The notes below the pieces were generated by a model. The model saw only the letters and a list, made by a program, of their open reading frames with translations, had not been told where the DNA came from and did not search any database. The position numbers and the translations under genes are program-made. A DNA stretch of 46,907 nucleotides, taken from sequence record MK327140.1. The stretch is one strand, 5' to 3'. Positions 2,971 through 17,919 of the stretch are shown piece by piece. The DNA comes from Klebsiella phage YX3973. Each line of letters begins with the position of its first letter. Within the stretch, counting starts at the first letter, position 1.

Positions 2971-5900
2971 TGGCAGAAACAGTTGGCGGCATTATCTATG
3001 AGGTTGGCATTGACACATCCCAGCTAGTGGCTGGCAGTCGTGAATTGCAGTCAATGCTAAATGGACTTAGCGGGAACATGGGGCGACTTGAGGCCAGTGT
3101 AAACAGGACAGAGCGCTCTATTGGATCGATGGAACGAACAATGTCCAGCCTTTCTGGCGTTGCCAAGGGATTGTTCGCGGCGCTTTCTGTGCAACAGGTT
3201 GCGAGTTACGCCGATGCCTGGACTGAACTAAATAACAAGGTAGCTAACTCGGTTCGTACTGGAGAGACGCAGACCGAAGTTATGCAGCGGATCTTTGATG
3301 TTTCACAAGCAACCCAGTCATCCCTTAACGGCACGGCGACTCTTTACGCCAGACTTGAGCGAGGAACCAGGGCGTACAACACCAGCGCGGAAGATTTAGT
3401 CCGCCTGACCACTATTATCAACCAGGGGTTTGCAGTATCCGGTGCAACAGCTCAGGAAGCTGAGAACGCAATCATTCAGCTATCACAGGGTATCGCTTCC
3501 GGCGTTCTGCGCGGCGAGGAGTTTAACTCAGTGTCAGAGCAAGGCAGCCGCCTCATGGTAGCTCTGGCTGATTCGATGGGTGTTTCTATCGGTCAGTTGA
3601 GGGCTATGGCCGCTCAGGGGCAGCTAACAACAGACGTTGTAGTTAAGGGGCTTCTGTCACAAGGGGATGCAATCGGCAAAGAATTTGCCAACACCACCGT
3701 CTCAATCGCCAAGGGATTGCAGGTAGCCGGTAACAACGTAACGAAGTTCTTTGGCGAAAACTCGACGGTTAAATCATTTGCAGCAGGGTTCCGAGACTCT
3801 GTCATCACAATAAGTGAGAACCTTGAGACGCTGAGCGGCGCCCTTATCATTGTAGCTGGCATAATGGGAAGTCGGTATGTTGGCGCGCTGGCTATGGCTA
3901 CTGCTGCGAAAATATCAGATATAGCAGCGTCAAGACAACAATTAATGGCCGAGAACCAGCAGGCACAATCAGCGCTTGTGGCTGCAAATTCCGCGCGGAG
4001 GAAGGCGCTGGCTGATAAAGAGGCGGCGCTATCATCTCTGGCGCTTGCTCAGGCTGAATATAACGTAGCAAAAGGCAGCGCAGCCGAGATGCTGGCGCTT
4101 GATGCTCTGGTTGCGGCAAAATCAAGAGCGAGCGCCGCGTCACTATCCCTTGCTCAGGCTGAAAACGCACAGGCTGCCGCATCAGCGAGAGCAGCATCAG
4201 CGGCAAGGGCCGCATCGGTAGGGATTGGACTTGCCAGAGGTGCACTTTCATTGATAGGCGGCCCAGCTGGCGCGGCAATGTTAGCGGCGGGGGCAATATT
4301 TTACTTCTGGCAGAAAGCACAGCAAGCCAGAGAAGAAGCAATCCGCTTTGCCGATAGCCTGGATAAAGTTAACGCCTCAATGAAGGCGATGAACAATACC
4401 CAACTCAGGGGGGTAATTGCCGACGCTAATAAGTCTATTCAGGCACAAGAGGAATATGTAAGGGATCTTGAAGACAGCATTGATAAACTTAAAGGTGAGA
4501 TTGATGACTATACCGCAAGAGGAAAGCTGTTCGGAACAACAATAGAGCAAGGAAACGGGTTACTAAAAATCGCATCAGATAAAACTGATGAACTGAATCA
4601 AAAATCGCGCGACCTTGCGAACGCCAAGGAAAAACTAGCAAGAACTCAGGAAGCCGCATCTGAAGCACGCAGAACCCTTACAAACAACATGCTCACGTCT
4701 ATGGGTGTGCATGACAGCCTGATTGAGAAGGGATCAACGCTTGAAAGGGTGCAGGGCGCTGTAGCAAGAGCATTTGGCCTGACTGCCGATGAGATAAACC
4801 GAGCAAATCAGGCAGGCCAAAACTTCAACCCAAAATCCTTGCAAGTGTCGCCCCCAACAGAAGAAGCTGACAAGATAATCCTCAATCTTGAGGAGCAAAA
4901 CCAACTTTTAAAAATACAGGATGAAAGACAAAGGGCAGTAACAAAGGCGAGAATGGAGGCAGCTAAGGTAACTGATAACCCCAATCAGATAGCCAGAGCT
5001 GCTGAGCTTGCAGGTCAGATATATGATTTAACTGAGGCTGAGAAAGCAAGAGAAAAAGCGCAAAATGATTCTCAATCAGCGGCCCAAAAAGCCGCCACAG
5101 AGCAGGAGAATATCGCCAACAAACTTGAGCAACTGCGGCAAGAATCATTGCTAACAGCAGATAGCACAAGAGAGCTAAGTCGAGAGCAAGCAATACTACA
5201 GGCACAACAATCATTAGGAAAAGGCGCCACAGAGGAGCAAATAAGGCTCGCTGGAGAGTACAAGGCTAAGGCATGGGATAATGCCAACGCGATAAAGGCT
5301 CAGGCAGAGGCGGAGAAACAAAGGGTCGAAGCTGTAAAAGGATTCGCTGCATTAAAATCGCAGACATCACCAATGTTTGCCGTTGAAACAAACTATCAGA
5401 AGGATTTAGCAGCGCTTAATGCTTACGCAGTAGCTTACCCGCAAAAGATAGCGGAGGTTGAGCAGGCCAGAGCAGCAATTGAGGAGCAATACCGCCAGCA
5501 GCGCCTTGATGCCATGTGGCAGGAGTGGAGTCAGCAGAATGCGGCTACGCAGGCGGCTGCTGCTGCATTTGATGCTTTTGGACAAACTGCAAGTAATGCC
5601 TTAACTGGCATCCTGACTGGTTCAATGTCTGTTAGCGAGGCGCTACAGTCAATTGGCAGCACTGTGTTAAACGCCGTGATTAACTCATTCGTTCAGATGG
5701 GCGTGGAGTGGCTTAAATCAGTAATCATGGGACAGGCAGGAATGGCAGCAGCATCTGCCGCAACCGCCGCTCAGGCGGCAGGAATAGCAGCGGCTATGGC
5801 GCCAGCAGCAGCGATGACCTCGCTTGCTACATCTGGAGCTAACGCAATCCCAGCTCAGGCTGGTATTGCTTCTACGGTTGGTGTGGCTAAAGCAATGTCT

Positions 5901-7191: not shown

Positions 7192-7612
7192 CGATTTTGA
7201 AAAAATGATGACTGGTAAGCCATACGTCGACAGATGTTGTCACGTTGATGCAGTGGACTGCTGGGGTTTGGTGGTGCTGTTCTATCGCCTTTGCCATGGG
7301 ATTAATGTTCACCATGATGATTCATATTCAACAGGTGGCGACTTTGTCACCTGCTTTGATAATGAGGTTGAGTTCTGGCGAGAAACCACGATACCAAAAG
7401 TCGGTGATGTGGTGGTCGCCTATCGCGGGAGTCATCCGGTACATGTCGCGCTGTGGTGGGGTCGTGATAAAATACTGCATGCGCGAGAGAAAACGGCAGT
7501 CAAGACAGACCGCCTTAAAACACTCGAAAAATTATCAACAAAATTAAGGTTCCTGACTTATGCCGGTTATTCACATTCAGAAGATGCCAGGTGTTCCAAA
7601 AGAGACGGGTAA
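7133..7612 (+). CDS. Tail assembly protein K-like, NlpC/P60 (CHAP-like) domain; true start may be ATG 7205
   Basis: Cys (DCWGLV) and His (HVALWW..ILHA) catalytic motifs typical of NlpC/P60 and gpK. Confidence 0.6.
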
Positions 7613-10040
7613 TGTTCCTGCTGGCACTAATCTGTGGCGATGGCTGGAGAATTCCGGCCTTCCATCTGATATCAGGATTGCGCTGAATGGCCGCATTTTT
7701 GGCCCTGATGATGAATTGTCGATATCGTTAAAGCAAAACGATATTGTTAACATTTACTGTCAGCCTCGCGGCGCCATTGGCGACCTTATCAGTACGATAC
7801 TAAAACCTGTAACTAAGGTGCTTTCTTTCCTGCTGCCTAAAGCATCAACGCCATCAACCAGCACTGGTACAACCGTTGAATCACCCAATAACAGCCTGAA
7901 ATCGCAGACCAATATCGCGCGAAACGGAGAGGCAAGGCCTGACAACTTCGGGCAGGTAAGGTCATTCCCTGATCTGATTCAGGAGTCATTATTCGAATAC
8001 ATTGACGACCTGAAGTATGTCACTGAGTTCATGAACTTTGGCCTTGGTAAATACACCATTTCTTCGGTTCGCTATGCGGAAACTAATCTTGGCTCCCTGC
8101 CGGGGGCAAGTCACGTCATCTACAATCCAGGCGATGTTATCGAACAAATCATTGAGCCTTACCAGTTCGACGGACTTGATGGTCAGGAGGTTCCAGGGCT
8201 TAATGAATCGGAAGACACCCCGATAGAGACAGCAACCACGACATCTGTTACCAGCGGAAATTACGCTGGCGGTCAGCTGTTGATGGTCATACCAAAAAAC
8301 ACCGATTTCGATTACTTTATGGGGCTGTCTCTTCCTCATTCAGTAACATTAACAATAAATATAACTTACAGCACAACGTCAGGTACTGTAACCAAAAACA
8401 TTGAGCTTAGCGGCAACATCATTTCCGCCGATGAAACTGAGACAGGAACTGCGCCTGATATTCAGTATTTTTATAATTTCACCTTCAATAACCTGACTGG
8501 CGCAAATCTTGGAAACCTGAGCGGCGCAACCATCAATAATACTTATTTCCAGATTGTGGATAATGAGGCGCTTGTTGTTGGCCCATATGTTGGAGCCGTG
8601 GAGTCTACGCAGGTTTGGGTGCACGTTCAGTCTGAGCTTGGCCCTACCAGTGGCACGGCAGATTACCTGATCAAAATATGGGCGGTTGATGATAATGGCG
8701 ATGCAATTCCAGGAACCAAGGAGCAGCTCGCAGACAGTATTGACAACCCATTTACTCAGACAACAAAAACCTATTATCGCACGTATAAGTTTGCTCCCGC
8801 TTATGGGGTGGCGAAGTACGCCATCAGCATTGAAAGGACAAATAACTCAAACTCTGGCAACCGCGTAACGTTGCAGGCAGCGCACGCCATCAACATCCGC
8901 GAGAATGTGGTTTATCCTGATGACACCCTTGTTAAAGTGACGGTAAAGGCCACGCTTCAGCCCACATCAGTCACTGAGCGCAAATATAATGCGCTGATTA
9001 CCCGCTGGACTATTGGATATAACAGAACAACGGGGGCAGTCGACTATGCGTTAAGACCATCGAGAAGTTTTGCAGATTCAGTGCTGCATAACTGGATTAT
9101 TACTGCTGGTCAACCTGAAAGCACTATTGACGTGGTAAGACTCTATGAAATAGCTGACGCACTGCCTGATGAGCGTCTTGGGTATTTTGATTACACATTT
9201 GACGATGAGGATAAATCGATCGGTGAACGAATTCAGACCATATGTGATGCAGCGCGTGTAACCGTGTTTTGGGATGATGGCGTCTTGTCTTTCTCAAGGG
9301 ATGAGCAAAAATCAACTCCTGAAACCGTGTTCAATACCAGAAATACGCAGGCCGATGGCTATAAAATGTCTTATGATATGACTTTGCCAGGGTCATATGA
9401 TGGCGTAAGTGTTCAATACCGCGACCCAAACACCAACAAACAGGCTTACGTTTATTATAAAGTTGGAACATCTGGTATCGAACCGGGAGAGCCGACTAAG
9501 CCGAAAAAATTCGACATGCTATATGTTCGAAACCTATATCAGGCAACAGACCGGGCCATGCTTGAGTGCAACCGTCTCATGTACTCACGCCGTGGAATGG
9601 AGATAAAAGCGCTTGCTGATGGTGAGTGGGTAAACGTTGGCGATATGATTTCCGTTGTTGACATTTATGATTCTGTACAGCAAACAGGCGTTATCCGTTC
9701 AAGGTCTGGAAACGTATTTACCACCAGTGAACAGCTCACGGCGGGAAGTGGCCTGTTTGTAGTTATAACTGGCGCCAATGGAAATGTGTCAGATCGATTG
9801 GCTTGTACCGTTACTGGATTGAATACATTCGAGTGCGCATTACCATCTGACTTCGGGTTAAACATTTTTGACGGTGTTAACGTTCAGTCAGAATCAAGAT
9901 ATGCCATCTCAACAGAGGTTGAGCTTGACTCAACTTTATGGACAGTCAGCCAGAAAACTCCAGGTACAGATGGCACAGTGTCTCTTACAGTAACTGAGTA
10001 CAATGACGCCATGTACGCCTACACCAACCCTGTTGCATGA
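7560..10040 (+). CDS. Tail tip / host-specificity protein (gpI-like ubiquitin-like N-terminus fused to a J-like body)
   Basis: 826 aa immediately after the K-like gene; synteny with lambda I/J. Confidence 0.55.
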
Positions 10041-10069
10041 TACAATAGGGCAATCAATGATTACGGAGA

Positions 10070-12532
10070 TTGCAGCCAATGGCTACCACCCCAACTAACA
10101 AGCCAGTCCCGTCTAACGACCTGAGTGATTTTAGATACAACTGTGAAAAAGTTGACGAGATTGTAAACTCAGGTAGTGAGACGTACACTGATAGATTCGG
10201 CGTGGAAAGATATACCATTGATGGGGTAAGAAAAAATCTTATTCCTCTTGGTAAGCAATATATGACACTTTCTGATGCACAGGCTGATATTGCTAATATA
10301 CCGGTCAACTCTTACACATACGTGCGCGATGCTTCGGGTACATCTCTGGCGCTGGAATATCAAAATGTAGCTGGTACTCTAACAGCAACTGGTCGTGCAA
10401 TGCCGTCACAACAATCAGTAGACAAAGCATCAAAAGCCGTTGATTCAGGTTTGAATGTTTTGTTTGATCCGCTATTTGAGGTATTGCTATCCAATCCTAC
10501 CGTGGGAAGCAAAACACACATTGTTAGCGGAACGTTAACCGCGGCTTTGTCGACCAATGCTAAATTAGGCTTCCCGGCTATTGTGGCCGGACCCGATGCG
10601 GGCGCAATTGCCGCTCGCAGATTATGGCTCGCCGATTGTGCCGTGGCTGTCGGGGATACCATATCTTTAAATGTTATCGCATGGTACGCCAACGCTGGTG
10701 GGCGCGTTGCTTTTGTTTTTCGTAATGCGTCTGGTACTGCTATAGGGACACAGTATTTATTATACGCCACCGGAACAGGGTTCAATCGGTATTTGCGCAC
10801 TCTAACAGTCCCATCTGGTGCGGTTATGCTTGATGTGCGTGTCGAAAACACCGCTAATGCTGGTACGGTAGAGCTGGACGCAGTGTTTTTGATGTCTGCT
10901 ACATCCGAAGCACATCCAACTGTGCCTGGTAGACCCGTGGCCCCCTATGCAGTGCCTCTGCAAAACAACGTTGTGACTACTTCTTCAATTCAAAAGGCCG
11001 CCGTCACAGTGGATAAAGCATCATTTTTCATTCCAGGAGTTAACCTTTTTGATAAAGCTGCCGTCACATCGGGGTATTATGTTAACTATAAGACCGGTAA
11101 TTTAATCACTAACGCTTCGTATTCTGCATCTGATTATATCCCTGTAACAGCGGGTCAGAATTACACGCAAAGTTTTTCGCATCAAACAGCCTTCTACGAT
11201 GCAAATAAAACTTATATTTCTGGCGTTAATGCTCTTGTATCTCCATCAACAGCGAGGACTTTAACTATTCCTGCTGGGGCAGCTTATGTACGAATGTCAG
11301 TCGCAAATACCGCACTCGATACGATGCAATTCGAAAAAGGTAATGAATCCACAGGTTACCAGCCATATGCATTACAGCTGGACCCGTCTTTAATACCAAC
11401 TACAGCAGCCCCAGTCGTCGATTATGTAGAGAGAGCCTATCAGCTTCGCGTTACTCGGATGAAATTGGGGCAACTAGAAGCCGGTGTATCGGCCATTCTT
11501 AATGTTGGTATTTTTGGCGATTCATGGGCAACATTAACCGAGAGATTCGCGAAACCTTTAGCAAAAGCGATTCGTGCTAAATATGGATCCGGCCCTGGTG
11601 TTGGCTGGGTATCATTCGGCCGTCACAGCACATCCGCATCAATAATTAACGGCAACATTTTCTCAGTCAGCAGAGACCTGCCAACGCAATTCACATGGAC
11701 AGGATCATGGTTGTTTAGTTATAGCGGCAAGAAAAACCCAACCAACTCCAGTCCAGATACTGCTGTTGTTACGTCCTCTACACCAGGGGATGCACTGAAG
11801 GCTACGGTCCCTGGCACCTCGGACGGCGGGTGGTCAACCTGCAGGCTGGGCTTTGTGGGTACAAGTAACGGTGTTATTCGATATAACTGGGATGGAGGGG
11901 AATGGACGACGCTCAACGTGCAAGGTAGAGGACTGCTGTTTGTTGATATTAACCCACCGGCTACTGTAAATGCCTCTAATGTGATTAACGTTGAGGTTGT
12001 ATCTGGCACGGTATCGTTATGTGGGATAAAGCCGATTGGCACTGGCTCTGGTGTGCGCGTTCATAAGCTTGGCGCATCTGGTTCAAGTCTTGCTTCATGG
12101 CTGTCAATGGACGCCACTGATTTCGGAAAGGCTCTCGCCGAGATGGCGTTGGACACCGTTATCATCCTTACTGGTACAAACGACCAGCGGATCACTGGTG
12201 GCGCTACTGCATTTGAAGCTAACCTGCGCGCTTTTATTGCTCGTATCCGGGCGACGTTGCCCGGCGCTGATATCCTGTTTGTCATGCCATGCGAGAATGA
12301 GCGGACTGACAACCCGGTAACGATGGCATCAATGGCAGCCAGGGCCAGGACTGTAGCCTCAGATCTGAATTGCGCGTTTATAAACCTGCAATATATCTTC
12401 GGCGAAAACCCCGCAGATTATGCCGATGGTTCGATACACCCCTGGTTTGCTCCTGACGGTATCCACCCCGCCCCGAAAACTGGAGGGTATTTAATAAAAG
12501 ATGCAATATATCGTGTAATGACAATGAGATAA
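10070..12532 (+). CDS. Tail fibre / receptor-binding protein with C-terminal SGNH (GDSL) hydrolase domain
   Basis: 820 aa. Block I GIFGDSW (around residue 483), block III GTND, block V DGIHP. Central region has repeated beta-rich segments resembling carbohydrate-binding modules. Confidence 0.65.
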   Translation: MQPMATTPTNKPVPSNDLSDFRYNCEKVDEIVNSGSETYTDRFGVERYTIDGVRKNLIPLGKQYMTLSDAQADIANIPVNSYTYVRDASGTSLALEYQNVAGTLTATGRAMPSQQSVDKASKAVDSGLNVLFDPLFEVLLSNPTVGSKTHIVSGTLTAALSTNAKLGFPAIVAGPDAGAIAARRLWLADCAVAVGDTISLNVIAWYANAGGRVAFVFRNASGTAIGTQYLLYATGTGFNRYLRTLTVPSGAVMLDVRVENTANAGTVELDAVFLMSATSEAHPTVPGRPVAPYAVPLQNNVVTTSSIQKAAVTVDKASFFIPGVNLFDKAAVTSGYYVNYKTGNLITNASYSASDYIPVTAGQNYTQSFSHQTAFYDANKTYISGVNALVSPSTARTLTIPAGAAYVRMSVANTALDTMQFEKGNESTGYQPYALQLDPSLIPTTAAPVVDYVERAYQLRVTRMKLGQLEAGVSAILNVGIFGDSWATLTERFAKPLAKAIRAKYGSGPGVGWVSFGRHSTSASIINGNIFSVSRDLPTQFTWTGSWLFSYSGKKNPTNSSPDTAVVTSSTPGDALKATVPGTSDGGWSTCRLGFVGTSNGVIRYNWDGGEWTTLNVQGRGLLFVDINPPATVNASNVINVEVVSGTVSLCGIKPIGTGSGVRVHKLGASGSSLASWLSMDATDFGKALAEMALDTVIILTGTNDQRITGGATAFEANLRAFIARIRATLPGADILFVMPCENERTDNPVTMASMAARARTVASDLNCAFINLQYIFGENPADYADGSIHPWFAPDGIHPAPKTGGYLIKDAIYRVMTMR

Positions 12533-12533
12533 C

Positions 12534-12560
12534 AAAAAGGGCCATTCGGCCCTTTCTTCA
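12534..12560. terminator. Bidirectional rho-independent terminator (GGGCC-attc-GGCCC flanked by T-tracts on both strands) between convergent tail and replication modules
   Basis: aaaaagggccattcggccctttcttc. Confidence 0.6.
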
Positions 12561-12677
12561 TCAAAACGGAATATCATCATCAAAATCCATCGGCGGCTCA
12601 TTACCTCCTTGTTGGCTTTGTTGTTTTGGTGGCTGCTGTTGTCTCTGAGGTTGTTGGCATGATTGCTGGCGTGGTTG
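12561..12677 (-). other. In-frame 38-codon extension after the VRR-NUC amber stop, encoding QPRQQSCQQPQRQQQPPKQQSQQGGNEPP-MDFDDDIPF (an SSB C-terminal linker plus acidic tip)
   Basis: Read codon by codon in the same frame as the ORF at 12678..13145; TAG at 12680..12678; ends TGA 12563..12561, abutting the terminator. Confidence 0.4.
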
Positions 12678-13145
12678 CTAAAAGCCATCAAATATCAATG
12701 GCTCTGATGGTTTTTTATAGTTTGGGTAATTCTTTGCTCTCCAGTCGTTAAATGCCATCATCGCCGCTTCCCAACCGAGACATACGCACGCGAAGGATTC
12801 TAATTCTTTTGCAGCCTTGAGGTATGCCATTTGCCCTGGCTGCCATTTTGATAAAGTATGATCCATTCTTTTCATCTCCATAACGAATGATTGCTTTCCG
12901 ATGATAATGATGTCCGAGGCACCGAAGTTTAACGCGCCCTTTTTCTTCAGGTTTTCAACTTCATACCCTTTACGCTTTCCTTCATTTGGAACATGAATCA
13001 TAACTCTTGCAAAGTCAGGATATAGCTTCCTTATCTGATTAACAAAGGTCTCCAGTTCAGCATCTTCTGACGGGCACTTTTTGTTTCTGTAATCTAAATC
13101 TCCATATACCTTAACGCCTTCTGGAAAAATCATAATACCCCCCAA
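12678..13145 (-). CDS. VRR-NUC domain nuclease (PD-(D/E)xK superfamily)
   Basis: IHVPNEGKRKG ... ASDIIII ... FVMEMK motif arrangement typical of VRR-NUC; TTG start with a GGGGGG-type RBS; overlaps the helicase 3' end. Confidence 0.6.
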   Translation of the reverse strand: MGGIMIFPEGVKVYGDLDYRNKKCPSEDAELETFVNQIRKLYPDFARVMIHVPNEGKRKGYEVENLKKKGALNFGASDIIIIGKQSFVMEMKRMDHTLSKWQPGQMAYLKAAKELESFACVCLGWEAAMMAFNDWRAKNYPNYKKPSEPLIFDGF

Positions 13146-16036
13146 TACATGCCTTTAACGTTGAAATATTTACTCCCCTTGTCTCTTCTGAACATAATAA
13201 CTGATGGCGCGACAGCCTCATCTCTTTTTGCTATTGCATCATCAATTGACATGTCAGATTCACCAAAGCACTTCCCGCAAAACTCTTCCCACTCCTTCTT
13301 CATCCATTCCTTCTCAGAGTTTGGATTGTAGAACTTGCTAACAAAAAATGGCTTCTGGTCAATGGCAAATTTTACGTGCACCAAATCTTCACCACTTGAA
13401 ACGTAATGCTTCATAATGTTCATCATGGTTACGCTTGATTGCTTTGTTGCATAAGGAGAAGAATCAAGCCTGTCAGCTTCTTCTTTTAGCTTTTGGTTTG
13501 GGTCAATTATTTCAGCACCGCATGATGTGCAATTTCTTGCTGCTATATCATTTTCAAACCCACAATCTGGACACTCCTTTACCGACCATTTATAAGTACA
13601 CCTATGCATTTCCCTTAGCGGTCCATGCATAACGTAGTTTTTACACCGCCTACCAAAATGAGCAGGCATAGGCTTGCTTCCAATCTTTTCACCTGACTTA
13701 TCAAAAATATCAATCATTACTCTGTCACCCGCCAAATCCAGCCAGTAACCTTCCTTGTCAACTTCAAGATTTTCAGGATTTGGGCGCACACCAAATTCAT
13801 TAATAAAGCCACAAAGAGGGCATTTGACATCCATTGGCACGGATGGTTTTTTCCTTGTTGCTTTTATTTCTGGAGTGAACAAGTCCCCAGTCTCAGAAAA
13901 GTGGCGCTGAATGTTGCCTGCGTAATCGCTGACAAGAAAGTCTTCCTTACCTTCATAAAGACGCGTGCCCCTGCCAATTATTTGCTGGTACAGTCTTGGT
14001 GATTCTGTTGCTCTCATTACTGCTATGTGATCACAATGAGGGACATCAACCCCTACAGTAAGGATATTCTGGTTAACGATGTATTTAACTTTTTGTTCCT
14101 TGAACTCTGATATTGCCTTGTTGCGATCTGCTGTTGGCATATCACCAAAAACATAACTATAAGACCCGGGAGGAAGTGACTCCATTATCTCCATAGCGTG
14201 TTTCTTGGTGCTGGCAAAAATCATAGTTCCGCGCCGATTAACAGAGCGACGGATAATATCTTCAACAATACGTGATGTTTTCCTTCCCTTGCCAACCATC
14301 GCCTTTTCAACTGAAGCTGTTGTGTACCGACCCAACTTATCCTTTTCAAGACAAGACGTATCATACTCGTCAAAAACAGGCTCTGTAACTGGTGGCGTAA
14401 GATATCCATTTTCGATGAGAAATTTAGCTTCAAGCTCATAAACAACCTTGTCATAGTAAGGTTCAATCGCCGTCTCTTCGTCGGTTGGTCCATCAATATA
14501 GTGCTCTTTATAGATATAACCAGTGCCAAGGCGATAAGGTGTAGCGGTCATCCCAATAACACGCAGCTTTGGATTGCGGCGCTTCATCTCATTAATAATA
14601 AATTTAATGGTTGGTGTTATTCCATCACACTCATCAATAATGACAGCACCATACTTATCACCAAACATCTCTATTGAGTTCTTGATTGTAACTGGTGAGC
14701 CAAAAACAACCGGATGCCGCAGGTTTTTTGGCCCAGCCTTTGCGCTGAACATGCTGGCTGGTTCTCCGGTGAGAGAAAGATAACGCTGCCTGTTTTGTAC
14801 AACTAACTCGCTTGTTGGGGCAACACATAGAACACGCTTGCCAGTATTTTTAAAAACCCAATCGGCTATTGATGCAACAACAACGCTTTTACCGCTATTA
14901 TGGTGTATCGTGAAGTCACTAGTTAGATAGAGGTGATCACCATCCAAAGTAAAACCATAGAAATAATCCTCTGGCAATTCTTCAACCGTAAAACCAGTGC
15001 ACAATACGTCTTTCTTCTGCTTTCTTGCTGATGCCTTTTTATAACCAATCATTGGTTTCAAAATATCAATATCACCACTTATCGTGACTCTGTATTTATC
15101 AGAAATGAACTCACCATTCAATGTAGCTGCTCCGGTATTAACGTACGCAGCCAACCCAAGAGAACGAGCCACAAAAGCAACATCATTAGCCAGATGTTTT
15201 GATACAGTAGTTAACTCATAGTAATTGTTACCAAGATAACCGTCCGTATCAATAAGGCCAGAAAGCAATTCAATTCTTTGCTCTCTGGATGCAACCTTAT
15301 AGCAATAAGGAATAAAAACGCTATAAGAATTTTTGTTCAGCAAACCAAGCGATTCCATCTCTACTTGTAAACCATTCTTTTTGCCTCCGCGCTTTCCTTC
15401 GGATGCGTGAATGTGTTTGGTCGATGTTGATTTCTTCATTGTTACGTTTGCATAGCAACCAAAATCTGCAGCCACCTTGCAAAAATAATCAATAAGAACA
15501 TCTTCGCTACCTGAAAAAGTTACAGTTCCTCTGGTGGTTGAGCCATCACCCAACATCATTCCAATAAATCTCGCGGGCAGATTTTGTTTTGCTTCCGGGA
15601 ACTGAACCCCAGCACGACATAACTTATGCGTGTGCTTATGCCATTGGGAAGACGATTCAAACTCTGATACTTTCTCATCAATGTAACCATGCTTTTGAGA
15701 TGGATATTTGCTTCCGCTCGCAACCTTCTTGAGGTGCAATACGTGACTTGCGTTAACAACAAAAGGCTCACCTTTTGTTGGCGTTATCTTTCTCATTGAC
15801 TCTCTGCCACGACACAGAAACAAAACATTGCGCGGCTTGCTGTCCGGCCCCATCAGCTTATCACCGACAACAACATCCTCTACTTTTTTTATGCTGCCAT
15901 CAAACATAAGAACCTCAGTCCCTTTCGCGTGGCAGCCCGTAGGCAAGATGATCATGCACGATGAAACGCTTGAACGAATATGACCTATAACAGAATCAAC
16001 AGCTTCTTGTTGGTATGTTCTAAGCTGTACTTTCAT
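13130..16036 (-). CDS. SF2 (DEAD/DEAH-type) DNA helicase interrupted by an intein; C-terminal zinc-ribbon region
   Basis: Walker A reconstituted as PTG|SGKS across the intein; motif II DECD; CxxC...CxxC pairs near the C-terminus; mature protein ~622 aa. Confidence 0.8.
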   Translation of the reverse strand: MKVQLRTYQQEAVDSVIGHIRSSVSSCMIILPTGCHAKGTEVLMFDGSIKKVEDVVVGDKLMGPDSKPRNVLFLCRGRESMRKITPTKGEPFVVNASHVLHLKKVASGSKYPSQKHGYIDEKVSEFESSSQWHKHTHKLCRAGVQFPEAKQNLPARFIGMMLGDGSTTRGTVTFSGSEDVLIDYFCKVAADFGCYANVTMKKSTSTKHIHASEGKRGGKKNGLQVEMESLGLLNKNSYSVFIPYCYKVASREQRIELLSGLIDTDGYLGNNYYELTTVSKHLANDVAFVARSLGLAAYVNTGAATLNGEFISDKYRVTISGDIDILKPMIGYKKASARKQKKDVLCTGFTVEELPEDYFYGFTLDGDHLYLTSDFTIHHNSGKSVVVASIADWVFKNTGKRVLCVAPTSELVVQNRQRYLSLTGEPASMFSAKAGPKNLRHPVVFGSPVTIKNSIEMFGDKYGAVIIDECDGITPTIKFIINEMKRRNPKLRVIGMTATPYRLGTGYIYKEHYIDGPTDEETAIEPYYDKVVYELEAKFLIENGYLTPPVTEPVFDEYDTSCLEKDKLGRYTTASVEKAMVGKGRKTSRIVEDIIRRSVNRRGTMIFASTKKHAMEIMESLPPGSYSYVFGDMPTADRNKAISEFKEQKVKYIVNQNILTVGVDVPHCDHIAVMRATESPRLYQQIIGRGTRLYEGKEDFLVSDYAGNIQRHFSETGDLFTPEIKATRKKPSVPMDVKCPLCGFINEFGVRPNPENLEVDKEGYWLDLAGDRVMIDIFDKSGEKIGSKPMPAHFGRRCKNYVMHGPLREMHRCTYKWSVKECPDCGFENDIAARNCTSCGAEIIDPNQKLKEEADRLDSSPYATKQSSVTMMNIMKHYVSSGEDLVHVKFAIDQKPFFVSKFYNPNSEKEWMKKEWEEFCGKCFGESDMSIDDAIAKRDEAVAPSVIMFRRDKGSKYFNVKGMYWGVL
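14897..15934 (-). mobile_element. Intein (346 aa) with a double-motif LAGLIDADG homing endonuclease, inserted in the helicase P-loop
   Basis: Starts with Cys35 (CHAKGTEVLMFDG), ends ...FTIHHN followed by Ser; LAGLIDADG motifs GMMLGDGS and LLSGLIDTDGYLG. Confidence 0.8.
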
Positions 16037-16045
16037 AGTGTCCTC

Positions 16046-16072
16046 TCGAATAAAAAAGGGCCACGAATGGCC
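16046..16072 (-). terminator. Intra-operon hairpin plus T-tract (attenuator) between the SSB-like gene and the helicase gene
   Basis: - strand GGGGCCATTCGTGGCCC followed by TTTTTT. Confidence 0.45.
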
Positions 16073-16090
16073 CCGTCATTACAATCTAAA

Positions 16091-16612
16091 TCAAAACGGC
16101 ACATCATCACTAAAGTCCATCGTCTGCTCGTTAGACGGTGCAGATTGCTTAGGAGCAGGTGCTGCTTTTGTCTGTTGACGACTGAAAACACCAGCCACAT
16201 AGTTACCAGTTTTTTGCTTATCCTCAGATTCCCAAACGCGCAGAAGAAGAATCATCGGGCGATTTGCAAGCGCACTGGCAATAGCAAAATCAGTCGGCTC
16301 TTTTCCTGATGCCATCAGCTTTCCACCAGCGTTTGCGTCAATTGCTGCAAGCATAGTGATAGCATTGTCTCGCTGCTTTTCTTTAGAGCTAAATACTTTC
16401 AGCTTCTGGAAGATGATGCGATTTTTATACTCACCCTCAAGAATTCGCCACTTAAGATTGAAGAATCGCTCACCTTCCCACTGGTCGTCTTTACATTCTT
16501 CAACGGCAGCAAGAACACGGCTACCATCAGGAATTACTTCGAAACCACCACCCAGCTCAAATTCAGATTTAGATTCAACAGCTTTACCGTCAGAAAGATT
16601 CCAGAAACCCAT
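16091..16612 (-). CDS. SSB-like protein (DUF669-type, Sak4-associated) with SSB-style acidic C-terminal tip ...MDFSDDVPF
   Basis: C-terminal DDVPF tip; sits next to Sak4/Gp157 as in Sak4-type recombination modules. Confidence 0.5.
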   Translation of the reverse strand: MGFWNLSDGKAVESKSEFELGGGFEVIPDGSRVLAAVEECKDDQWEGERFFNLKWRILEGEYKNRIIFQKLKVFSSKEKQRDNAITMLAAIDANAGGKLMASGKEPTDFAIASALANRPMILLLRVWESEDKQKTGNYVAGVFSRQQTKAAPAPKQSAPSNEQTMDFSDDVPF

Positions 16613-16628
16613 TTTTGTGTCCTCTCGA

Positions 16629-17123
16629 TTATTTGATGATCAGTTTCGGTTTGCCGTCGGTGATGGCACAACCATTAATTTCAATCCCGGCTTTAATCGC
16701 ATTTTTAATCGCTGCGTTATCTGCCGACACTTTCACAACGCGGTACTGCTCAGGAAGCTGCTCAACAGGTACAAACACATCAAGAACTTGTGATGGTTTG
16801 CCAAGCGTGATACTGAACAATTTTCCTTTGATATTCGTCTTTCCTGAAGCCATCATGTTCTGACGAAGATAATCTTTAAGATTATCAATCTTCGAAACTA
16901 AAACACGCTTACGCTCAGAAAGTCTGTCAATCTCTGACTTCAGTCCGGCCTCATCAGCTTCAAGCTCACGAATGTAAGCAGCAACCATTTCAGCCTTTCC
17001 TTCAAACTCCTCTTCAATAAGATTGATTGTATCTTCAATCTGCTCCCGTGGAATATCCTCCATAGCCATCAGTTCATTAAGCTGTTTCGTTATCTCGTAG
17101 AGATGCATAATATTTAATCTCAC
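16629..17123 (-). CDS. Siphovirus Gp157-like coiled-coil protein
   Basis: Coiled-coil N-terminal half; position between Sak4 and the SSB-like gene. Confidence 0.45.
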   Translation of the reverse strand: MRLNIMHLYEITKQLNELMAMEDIPREQIEDTINLIEEEFEGKAEMVAAYIRELEADEAGLKSEIDRLSERKRVLVSKIDNLKDYLRQNMMASGKTNIKGKLFSITLGKPSQVLDVFVPVEQLPEQYRVVKVSADNAAIKNAIKAGIEINGCAITDGKPKLIIK

Positions 17124-17919
17124 TCAAAAGCGGGTTCTCACCTTTTTCAAAAGGAATTTCAGGCTCAAGGTTGTATCTGTTTTTAGCATTAACATACCCA
17201 ACACGACCATCACCAGAGGTAATAAGAACTCGCTGACCAGTCTGAACCACTTTACCAAACTTGGTTACCTGACCTTTCTTATCAGTCTCAGTACCTTTCA
17301 CAAACTCCTCATTCCTGATGTAAATAACAGCATCACTCAGATTCACATAACCAGAAACTGAAGCATCATGCATGTCAAGCGTGTAAACTGTGTATTCATC
17401 AGCATCAGGGCGATTCTTCATCTTTTTAACACCTGCGTGTGCAAGATAAATAATGCTCATCCCTTTTTCTTTGCGAAGATACTTACATGCATTTATTATT
17501 TCAGCGTGCATTTCAGAAACAACAATATATCCTTTGTTGTAACCTCCAGCAGCAGAACCAACGTTGTCAACACCGTAGTTTTCACAAACCTCATGCTCAA
17601 ACATTGAATGCAGGCTTGTGATTGAGTCAATTACAAGCGTTTTGTAATTATGTTCCTCAGTAATTAATGCGCGTAGCTGTGACAGCAAATCATCCTTTGT
17701 GCTTGTTTTGCGTTTAGCATCAGCTCGCTTCAGCACAGGAAATGAATCTGGTTTCTTTTCATCATCCCAGTCATCAAAAACACCAGTGATCTCTTCAGCC
17801 TGAATAAAAACTGGATTTGGGAATAGTGCCGCAAGAGTCGTCTTGCCAACGCCAGGCGTGCCGACAAGAGTAATGATAGGTGCAACTGGTTTTGGTTTTT
17901 GAATCATTGATAAGCTCAT
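17077..17919 (-). CDS. Sak4-like RecA-fold ATPase (AAA_24-type single-strand annealing/recombination protein)
   Basis: Walker A GTPGVGKTT near the N-terminus; ~280 aa; context. Confidence 0.65.
   Translation of the reverse strand: MSLSMIQKPKPVAPIITLVGTPGVGKTTLAALFPNPVFIQAEEITGVFDDWDDEKKPDSFPVLKRADAKRKTSTKDDLLSQLRALITEEHNYKTLVIDSITSLHSMFEHEVCENYGVDNVGSAAGGYNKGYIVVSEMHAEIINACKYLRKEKGMSIIYLAHAGVKKMKNRPDADEYTVYTLDMHDASVSGYVNLSDAVIYIRNEEFVKGTETDKKGQVTKFGKVVQTGQRVLITSGDGRVGYVNAKNRYNLEPEIPFEKGENPLLSEIKYYASLRDNETA

Follow-up and report, generated by a model that had tools for sequence, protein, structure and literature searches.

An SSB-like tail behind the stop codon of a phage nuclease gene as the probable relic of a canonical ssb gene at a mosaic junction

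Why is the stop codon of a phage nuclease gene followed, in the same reading frame, by what looks like the C-terminal tail of a bacterial SSB (a protein that binds single-stranded DNA)? This question is raised by Klebsiella phage YX3973 (sequence record MK327140.1), of which a stretch of 46,907 nucleotides, hereafter the window, was analysed. On the minus strand, the amber stop (TAG 12680..12678) of a VRR-NUC-like nuclease gene is followed by 38 codons in the nuclease frame (12677..12564) and then by a TGA stop (12563..12561). An earlier reading of this DNA, made from the letters without database searches (the sequence-only reading), had described these 38 residues as a near-copy of the SSB linker and tip. 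It had considered readthrough of the amber codon, a recent nonsense mutation in a fusion gene, a remnant of an ssb 3' end, and a free peptide from a 9-codon mini-gene. The coordinates and the peptide given there proved exact. We conclude, with a probability of about 0.8, that this stretch is what is left, in non-coding form, of a canonical ssb gene's 3' end, located at a mosaic junction.

The 38-codon reading is QPRQQSCQQPQRQQQPPKQQSQQGGNEPPMDFDDDIPF. It begins with QPRQQSCQQ, and its distal part is GGNEPPMDFDDDIPF. On the minus strand, the codons around the nuclease stop are TTT GAT GGC TTT TAG, then CAA CCA CGC, and the 3' end of the stretch reads ATG GAT TTT GAT GAT GAT ATT CCG TTT TGA. Both the Gln/Pro/Gly-rich linker of disordered type and the acidic tip D-F-D-D-D-I-P-F of canonical SSB (PF00436) are present. 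In a tblastn search of the window, residues 124-162 of the SSB of phage ZCEC08, whose C-terminus is ...GGKRDDSGQQPRQQSGQQPQRQQQQPPKQQSPQGGNEPPMDFDDDIPF, matched the stretch with 92% identity over 39 residues (E = 2.7e-19), which confirms the likeness described earlier. In addition, 4,929 of 5,426 complete Escherichia coli genomes have a match to the final ~49 nt at the 3' end of their chromosomal ssb1, mostly with 90-95% identity. Judged from these alignments, the resemblance is one of homology, chance being excluded. The nuclease stop of the window aligns with the first Gln codon (CAG) of 'QQPRQQ' in the intact linker, and all that lies downstream is ssb linker and tip. The OB-fold part, a 5' start codon and a dedicated ribosome-binding site are all missing from the stretch. 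Moreover, tblastn with two intact phage SSBs found no OB-fold ssb in the whole window, the only matches being the stretch itself and the C-terminus of a DUF669 protein.

The stretch, called the relic below, consists of two parts (Table 1). The linker type of the proximal part (codons 1-24) is common to phages Sa179lw, Sf11 and ECO111 5-P, and a Gly-to-Cys change in it is private to the window. The distal part (codons 25-38), by its likeness to the allele of phage ZX4, is part of a tract imported along with the tail genes. An origin from the host chromosome was considered and rejected: the linker and the flanking terminator are far closer to phage ssb alleles, hence the source is a phage ssb gene.

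The gene order of relatives accounts for the position of the relic. Among the ~46-kb siphoviruses of enterobacteria to which the window belongs, this region has two arrangements. In ZX4 (Klebsiella) and ZCEC08 (Escherichia), the early operon comprises a helicase gene, a VRR-NUC-type nuclease gene, exonuclease/recombinase genes and ssb; the intact ssb is the final gene ahead of the same terminator and convergent tail-fibre gene as in the window. In the arrangement of the window, Sa179lw, Sf11 and ECO111 5-P, genes for a RecA-like/Sak4-like NTPase, Gp157, DUF669, helicase and nuclease are followed by the ssb tail only. From these gene contents, the Sak4-like/Gp157/DUF669 module replaces the exonuclease/recombinase/ssb module of ZX4 and ZCEC08. 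Orthologues of the Sak4-like open reading frame are annotated as recA-like NTPase or as Sak4-like single-stranded DNA annealing protein. For the DUF669 protein, the PHROG family hit is 9002, 'single strand DNA binding protein', with a value of 2e-69, and, as had already been noticed, the protein ends in the SSB-like tip MDFSDDVPF; a host-type tip occupies this C-terminus in all relatives examined (in Sf11, for example, ...SNEPPMDFDDDIPF). For phage HK620, the DUF669 protein encoded beside sak4 was shown to be a genuine SSB, the final six residues of which are needed for stimulation of Sak4 (Hutinet et al. 2018, PMC5928155). Given that the DUF669 SSB brings along a host-type tip, a canonical ssb would have been redundant in the lineage of the window, and the stretch would be its remainder. 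Among the explanations offered by the sequence-only reading, the remnant of an ssb 3' end is thus the one that gains support, from the synteny with ZX4 and ZCEC08, from the native stop of the nuclease and from the shrinking relics of relatives.

The stop codon itself was examined by comparing nuclease genes. The program-called reading frame begins at TTG 13145, upstream of the ATG retained in Table 1. A single nuclease sequence gave no Pfam match, even at E up to 5, but a profile of 28 family sequences matched the solved VRR-NUC structure PDB 4QBL (E = 3.1e-5) with the GASD...E-x-K motif aligned, so that the VRR-NUC label assigned earlier holds at the level of the family. Residues D74, E86 and K88 are invariant. 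Relatives were grouped into clade A (the window, Sa179lw, Sf11, ECO111 5-P, four IMG/VR contigs and one Logan contig), clade B (Klebsiella-type: VLCpiS13c and others) and clade C (VLCpiS13b type). The nuclease C-terminus (...F-stop) lies at one aligned position in all three clades and in sequence L017. Clade A ends in DGF followed by TAG or TAA, with TAA in Sa179lw and Sf11 where the window has TAG; clade B ends in DSF and clade C in NEF, KEF or TEF, both followed by TGA. L017 ends in EEF and TAA, with the terminator directly after and no ssb sequence. Hence the comparison of TAG with a possible sense codon, suggested with the earlier reading, yields a stop in all relatives (TAG, TAA or TGA) and a sense codon in none. 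A search of 5.8 billion proteins with a nuclease + Gln + tail fusion query gave 57 nuclease homologues and no fusion among them (0/57); all are 119-152 residues long and align only to the nuclease part of the query. The two largest nuclease clusters comprise 341 and 182 sequences. The shared end residue, the three types of stop and the absence of fusions argue that no fusion gene was hit by a nonsense mutation and that nothing about the stop is amber-specific. By these comparisons, the TAG of the window is the native stop of the nuclease.

Two tracts of similarity meet within the relic. Positions 17500..12558 are 92-94% identical to Sa179lw, Sf11 and ECO111 5-P, the tail genes of which are only ~70% identical to those of the window. 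Positions 12638..7403, which take in the final ~75 nt of ssb, the terminator and both tail genes, show 97.4% identity to ZX4, whose ssb is intact. Since the two tracts overlap nowhere but in the relic, the window is a recombinant that was joined within the ssb tail. Relatives carry comparable patterns. From 5 nt past the nuclease stop, clade-B relics together with the DNA downstream share 98-99% identity over 296 nt with contigs in which ssb is intact. Among six contigs whose encoded nuclease proteins are identical (P0009), three different sequences occur from the relic stop codon onward. Moreover, the relic tip variants DFDDSIPF (L010/L011) and MDDDIPF (VLCpiS13c/L013) are also found in intact ssb genes of the pool.

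As a whole, the genome is a host-range chimera that combines ZX4-like tail genes with a replication/recombination module like that of E. coli and Shigella phages. Given its Klebsiella-phage tail genes, the actual host may be Klebsiella rather than E. coli. A separate observation was made in L098, which has an intact ssb: ~290 nt downstream of this gene, positions 3766..3830 contain a 65-nt match (91%) to the 3' end of an ECO95-type nuclease gene. This match may be a remnant of a nuclease gene and thus a mirror-image counterpart to the ssb relic.

Is the coding appearance of the tip due to selection in place or to imported alleles? Variable sites were counted by codon position in eight clade-A sequences. 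The 151 codons of the nuclease show a strongly coding pattern, with 5:7:42 variable sites at positions 1, 2 and 3 (p = 4e-11 versus uniform). Codons 1-24 of the relic give 5:4:9, for which uniformity is not rejected (p = 0.31). Here, 19% of first and second positions are variable versus 4% in the nuclease, about five times as many (p = 7e-4), and this proportion does not differ from that at nuclease third positions (28%; p = 0.26). The proximal relic varies as if unconstrained and would thus be drifting. In codons 25-38, the counts are 3:2:11, with variation at 79% of third positions as opposed to 28% of those in the nuclease (p = 3e-4); the tips of the window and Sf11 differ by synonymous changes only. 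This third-position variation exceeds what could build up since the genomes diverged, which argues for replacement by divergent ssb alleles. The tip would thus have been repeatedly overwritten by alleles shaped by selection in intact ssb genes, rather than selected in place. Pairwise ratios of non-synonymous to synonymous change (dN/dS) had made the relic look constrained, with proportions of non-synonymous and synonymous differences (pN/pS) of ~0.15 in the proximal part and 0 in the distal part. They were dropped in favour of the site counts because the pairs do not track nuclease divergence and because a distal pS of ~1 reflects allele replacement.

The relic varies in length and frame among relatives. 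It has 38 codons in clade A, in frame with the nuclease, and 22-24 in clade B, e.g. MKPSNTPKPPANEPPMDFDDDIPF, also in frame and with an ATG abutting the nuclease TGA in 11 of the 12 genomes sampled (ATT in L016). In clade C, 15 codons remain, QQPSNSPPMEDDIPF, in frame +1 and beyond the reach of readthrough. ECO95 1-6-1 and L169/L170 have ~24-36 nt before the terminator and no tip. Unrelated sequence without frame conservation after the stop, named earlier as a refuting outcome, is found in part: clade C is out of frame and ECO95 and L169/L170 are tip-less, whereas clades A and B keep both the frame and the ssb homology. In tip-less L169/L170 (1957..1995) and L008 (4492..4540), the spacer between nuclease stop and terminator retains 'CCACCAAAA', matching the relic linker (…CAG CCA CCA AAA CAA…). 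This suggests that these relatives once had the tip and that a deletion between short AAAAC repeats removed it.

No translation signal common to all clades was found at the relic. Clade A has AAGGAGGT upstream of the internal ATG, with a GGAGG 13 nt from this ATG; the GGAGG is a Gly-Gly codon pair that also occurs in intact ssb alleles, and it is missing in clades B and C. In these two clades, a Shine-Dalgarno sequence is absent before either ATG. We infer that the relic is untranslated and that its being in frame with the nuclease is a historical accident.

Some observations weigh against this conclusion. The frame is open to the tip in every tip-bearing relic (~8 distinct sequences in clade A, ~8 in clade B and 3 in clade C), and 0 of the 12-13 Gln codons per clade-A relic has turned into a stop. 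Such a lack of stops is mildly unexpected under neutrality, unless exchange with intact genes is frequent. In clade B, the ATG after the TGA could permit termination-reinitiation, yielding an SSB-tip peptide of 22-24 residues. Finally, ssb homology begins 0-4 nt past the nuclease stop in clades A, B and C, opening with CAACCA, and it seems improbable that three independent deletions would all be flush with the nuclease stop. These flush starts would be explained by one old junction, after which unequal crossovers took place at the CAACCA repeats of different linker alleles; such a history could also account for the in-frame state of clades A and B, namely by descent.

The alternatives differ in what the stretch would be doing. 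Readthrough of the stop, programmed or by a suppressor tRNA, would provide some of the nuclease with an SSB linker and tip, allowing it to dock on SSB partners or SSB-coated DNA. The frame shared with the nuclease in clades A and B, its openness in all sampled members and the position of the TAG at a CAG Gln codon of the intact linker, where a supE-type host would insert the ancestral residue, are as expected from such a mechanism. We nevertheless regard it as very unlikely: close relatives use TAG, TAA or TGA (TAA in Sa179lw and Sf11, TGA in the Klebsiella type) without a conserved context, clade C is in frame +1, the tip is absent from ECO95 and L169/L170, none of the 57 homologues has a sense codon, the proximal extension varies as if unconstrained, and the phage already has a full SSB with a tip, the DUF669 protein. 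The same alignment of the stop with the CAG of intact ssb linkers, together with the continuous frame, would suit a true nuclease-SSB-tail fusion recently inactivated by a CAG-to-TAG mutation. This idea is hardly credible, since the end residue of the nuclease is shared by every clade and also by L017, which has no ssb sequence downstream, since all relatives have a stop there, of three kinds, and since the collection of 5.8 billion proteins holds no fusion protein and no homologue above 152 residues.

The relic might instead be translated alone, as a small SSB-tip peptide competing with host SSB for ExoI, RecQ, PriA, Pol III chi and other partners. The candidate reading frames are the 22-24 codons from the ATG abutting the TGA in clade B and the 9-codon MDFDDDIPF frame in clade A. 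The frequent TGA-ATG adjacency of clade B, the retention of an internal ATG and tip in all relics and the AAGGAGGT of clade A would all favour such a peptide. On the other hand, the clades share no expression signal, and clade A has no start at the 5' end of the relic; its GGAGG, 13 nt off, merely represents the Gly-Gly codons of intact ssb alleles. Clades B and C lack a Shine-Dalgarno sequence before either ATG, L016 has ATT for ATG, ECO95 and L169/L170 do without the tip, and imported alleles account for its conservation. A translated peptide is thus improbable, and the free 9-codon product proposed earlier finds no specific support.

A further possibility is that the relic is kept as useful DNA, either as a selected homology anchor for the capture of tail-fibre modules or as a template for gene conversion of the DUF669 tip. 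Crossovers demonstrably fall within the relic. In addition, the DUF669 tip (window 16094..16135, minus strand) varies among near-identical genomes, as compared in L001, L004, L005 and L009-L011: it is MDFSDDVPF in the window, MDFDEDIPF in L009, MDFDDDIPF in Sf11 and MDFDSDVPF in L011. Within clade A, the likeness of the DUF669 tip to the relic tip is greater inside one genome than across genomes (exact permutation p = 0.002, in a test that ignores relatedness and shared donor pools), and the synonymous codon choices of the DUF669 tip track those of the relic tip in the same genome; the two copies lie 3.5 kb apart in direct orientation. From these likenesses, gene conversion between the two tips may occur, as an unproven explanation. 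However, the permutation gave no within-genome signal in clade B, some lineages have lost the relic, and its use for crossovers is no proof that selection retains it. Retention as useful DNA is therefore quite unlikely. Taken together, an active relic of any of these kinds, whether a tip peptide or low-level readthrough product engaging host SSB partners or a selected DNA anchor or conversion template, appears unlikely. If one existed, the clade-B peptide or a clade-A readthrough protein would compete for or exploit host SSB partners, and a DNA anchor or conversion template would allow phages without ssb to go on trading host-range modules and SSB tips with relatives that have the gene.

The interpretation as a non-coding ssb relic leads to the following history. 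In the wider group of these siphoviruses, the early operon contains helicase, nuclease, exonuclease/recombinase and ssb genes ahead of the terminator. In the lineage of the window, the recombination module would have been swapped for Sak4-like, Gp157 and DUF669-SSB genes, which lie upstream of the helicase gene. With the loss of its OB-fold body, ssb would have been reduced to linker and tip, abutting the nuclease stop. The relic would since have formed a 3' untranslated region between the native stop of the nuclease and the terminator shared with the convergent tail-fibre gene. Its DNA would still offer a patch of homology to the conserved 3' end of ssb in related phages and in the host, a patch in which homologous crossovers swapping tail-fibre (host-range) modules can land, the window being one such recombinant. 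Repeated exchange would overwrite the tip with alleles selected in intact ssb genes, and the perfect, open and codon-periodic look of the tip would arise because such exchanges keep importing these alleles. The relic would mark, and be maintained by, the exchange of tail-fibre modules with ssb-bearing relatives. The locus thereby offers a worked example of phage mosaicism, in which a tail-gene module has passed between an E. coli/Shigella-phage backbone and a Klebsiella phage, with the crossover placed within ~80 nt of a conserved ssb 3' end that persists as a homology patch after the loss of ssb. It also calls for caution: a flawless motif after a stop codon need not mean function, and here it would come from overwriting by alleles of intact genes.

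Table 1. Positions in the window of the relic, the recombination joint and the surrounding genes
Feature	Position	Strand	Basis or remark
Probable ssb 3'-end relic (38 codons, linker + tip NEPPMDFDDDIPF, original ssb TGA)	12561..12677	-	ZCEC08 SSB homology
Proximal relic, codons 1-24	12606..12677	-	ZCEC08/L092-type ssb linker
Distal relic, codons 25-38, GGNEPPMDFDDDIPF	12564..12605	-	ZX4-type allele
Crossover interval	12558..12638	.	Sole overlap of Sa179lw/Sf11-like and ZX4-like tracts
VRR-NUC-like PD-(D/E)xK nuclease, 151 residues from ATG 13133	12678..13133	-	PHROG 824, family profile
Terminator hairpin, core GGGCC-GAAU-GGCCC 12552..12539, U-run 12538..12534	12528..12562	-	Folding
Tail protein, 826 residues	7560..10040	+	Convergent with nuclease operon
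Tail fibre, 820 residues	10070..12532	+	Convergent with nuclease operon
DUF669-family SSB, tip …SNEQTMDFSDDVPF	16091..16612	-	PF05037, PHROG 9002
Gp157-like gene	16629..17123	-	Sipho_Gp157, 1.3e-37
RecA-like/Sak4-like NTPase gene	17077..17919	-	P-loop reading frame; label from annotated orthologues

Features around the relic are collected in Table 1. The terminator hairpin has a folding energy of -19.1 kcal/mol (z = -4.7), and 0 of 200 shuffled sequences folds as well; a simple consensus terminator scan did not list it at 12528..12562, though folding shows a strong hairpin and U-run. A reading frame of 60-66 codons in another frame (12491..12691, minus strand) corresponds to the 'hypothetical protein' gp12 of Sf11 (L004 5511..5693). 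It starts within the nuclease gene and crosses the relic and the terminator hairpin, and it is almost certainly spurious because its downstream half is unconserved between close relatives. For annotation, the relic is best marked as an ssb pseudogene fragment and the overlapping gp12-type 'hypothetical protein' dropped. The helicase gene (13130..16036, minus strand) encodes 968 residues versus ~620 in Sa179lw and Sf11. It contains an intein of ~347 residues (~14894..15935) with a LAGLIDADG homing endonuclease (Hom_end_hint 6.7e-22, LAGLIDADG_3, Hom_end), which splits the P-loop region (…ILPTG|C … HHN|SGKS); the intein is also found in the IMG/VR contig L009 and is absent from the other clade-A genomes.

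How does the relic compare with known systems? With canonical SSB (PF00436) it shares homology over the last 39 residues, the host-type tip NEPPMDFDDDIPF and ~90-95% DNA identity to E. coli ssb1 over ~49 nt. Unlike canonical SSB, it lacks an OB-fold domain and a start codon and does not form a separate gene, being about a quarter of a gene placed after the stop of another. The window resembles the module of HK620, in which Sak4 is accompanied by a DUF669 SSB (PMC5928155), in having a RecA-like/Sak4-like gene, Gp157 and a DUF669 SSB with a bacterial-SSB-like tip. This module explains why a canonical ssb is dispensable in the window, and the relic lies outside it. Programmed stop-codon readthrough is exemplified by the A1 coat extension of phage Qbeta. 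The trait shared with such cases is an in-frame open extension past the stop; in contrast to them, neither the identity nor the context of the stop is conserved here, the frame is broken in clade C, the extension is missing in some relatives and none has a sense codon. The closest match is with the gene remnants, or 'scars', of mosaic genomes. Like these, the relic is a fragment of a gene whose intact version stands at the syntenic position in relatives; it lies at the border between conserved and swapped modules, varies in length among relatives and shows relaxed variation in the part that would not be overwritten. It differs from the usual scars in being unusually well preserved and in frame with the upstream gene, a condition attributable to its continual replacement by alleles of intact ssb genes, and in that the crossover can be located within ~80 nt. 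Overall, the relic is a further example of an already known type of feature, the gene relic at a mosaic junction.

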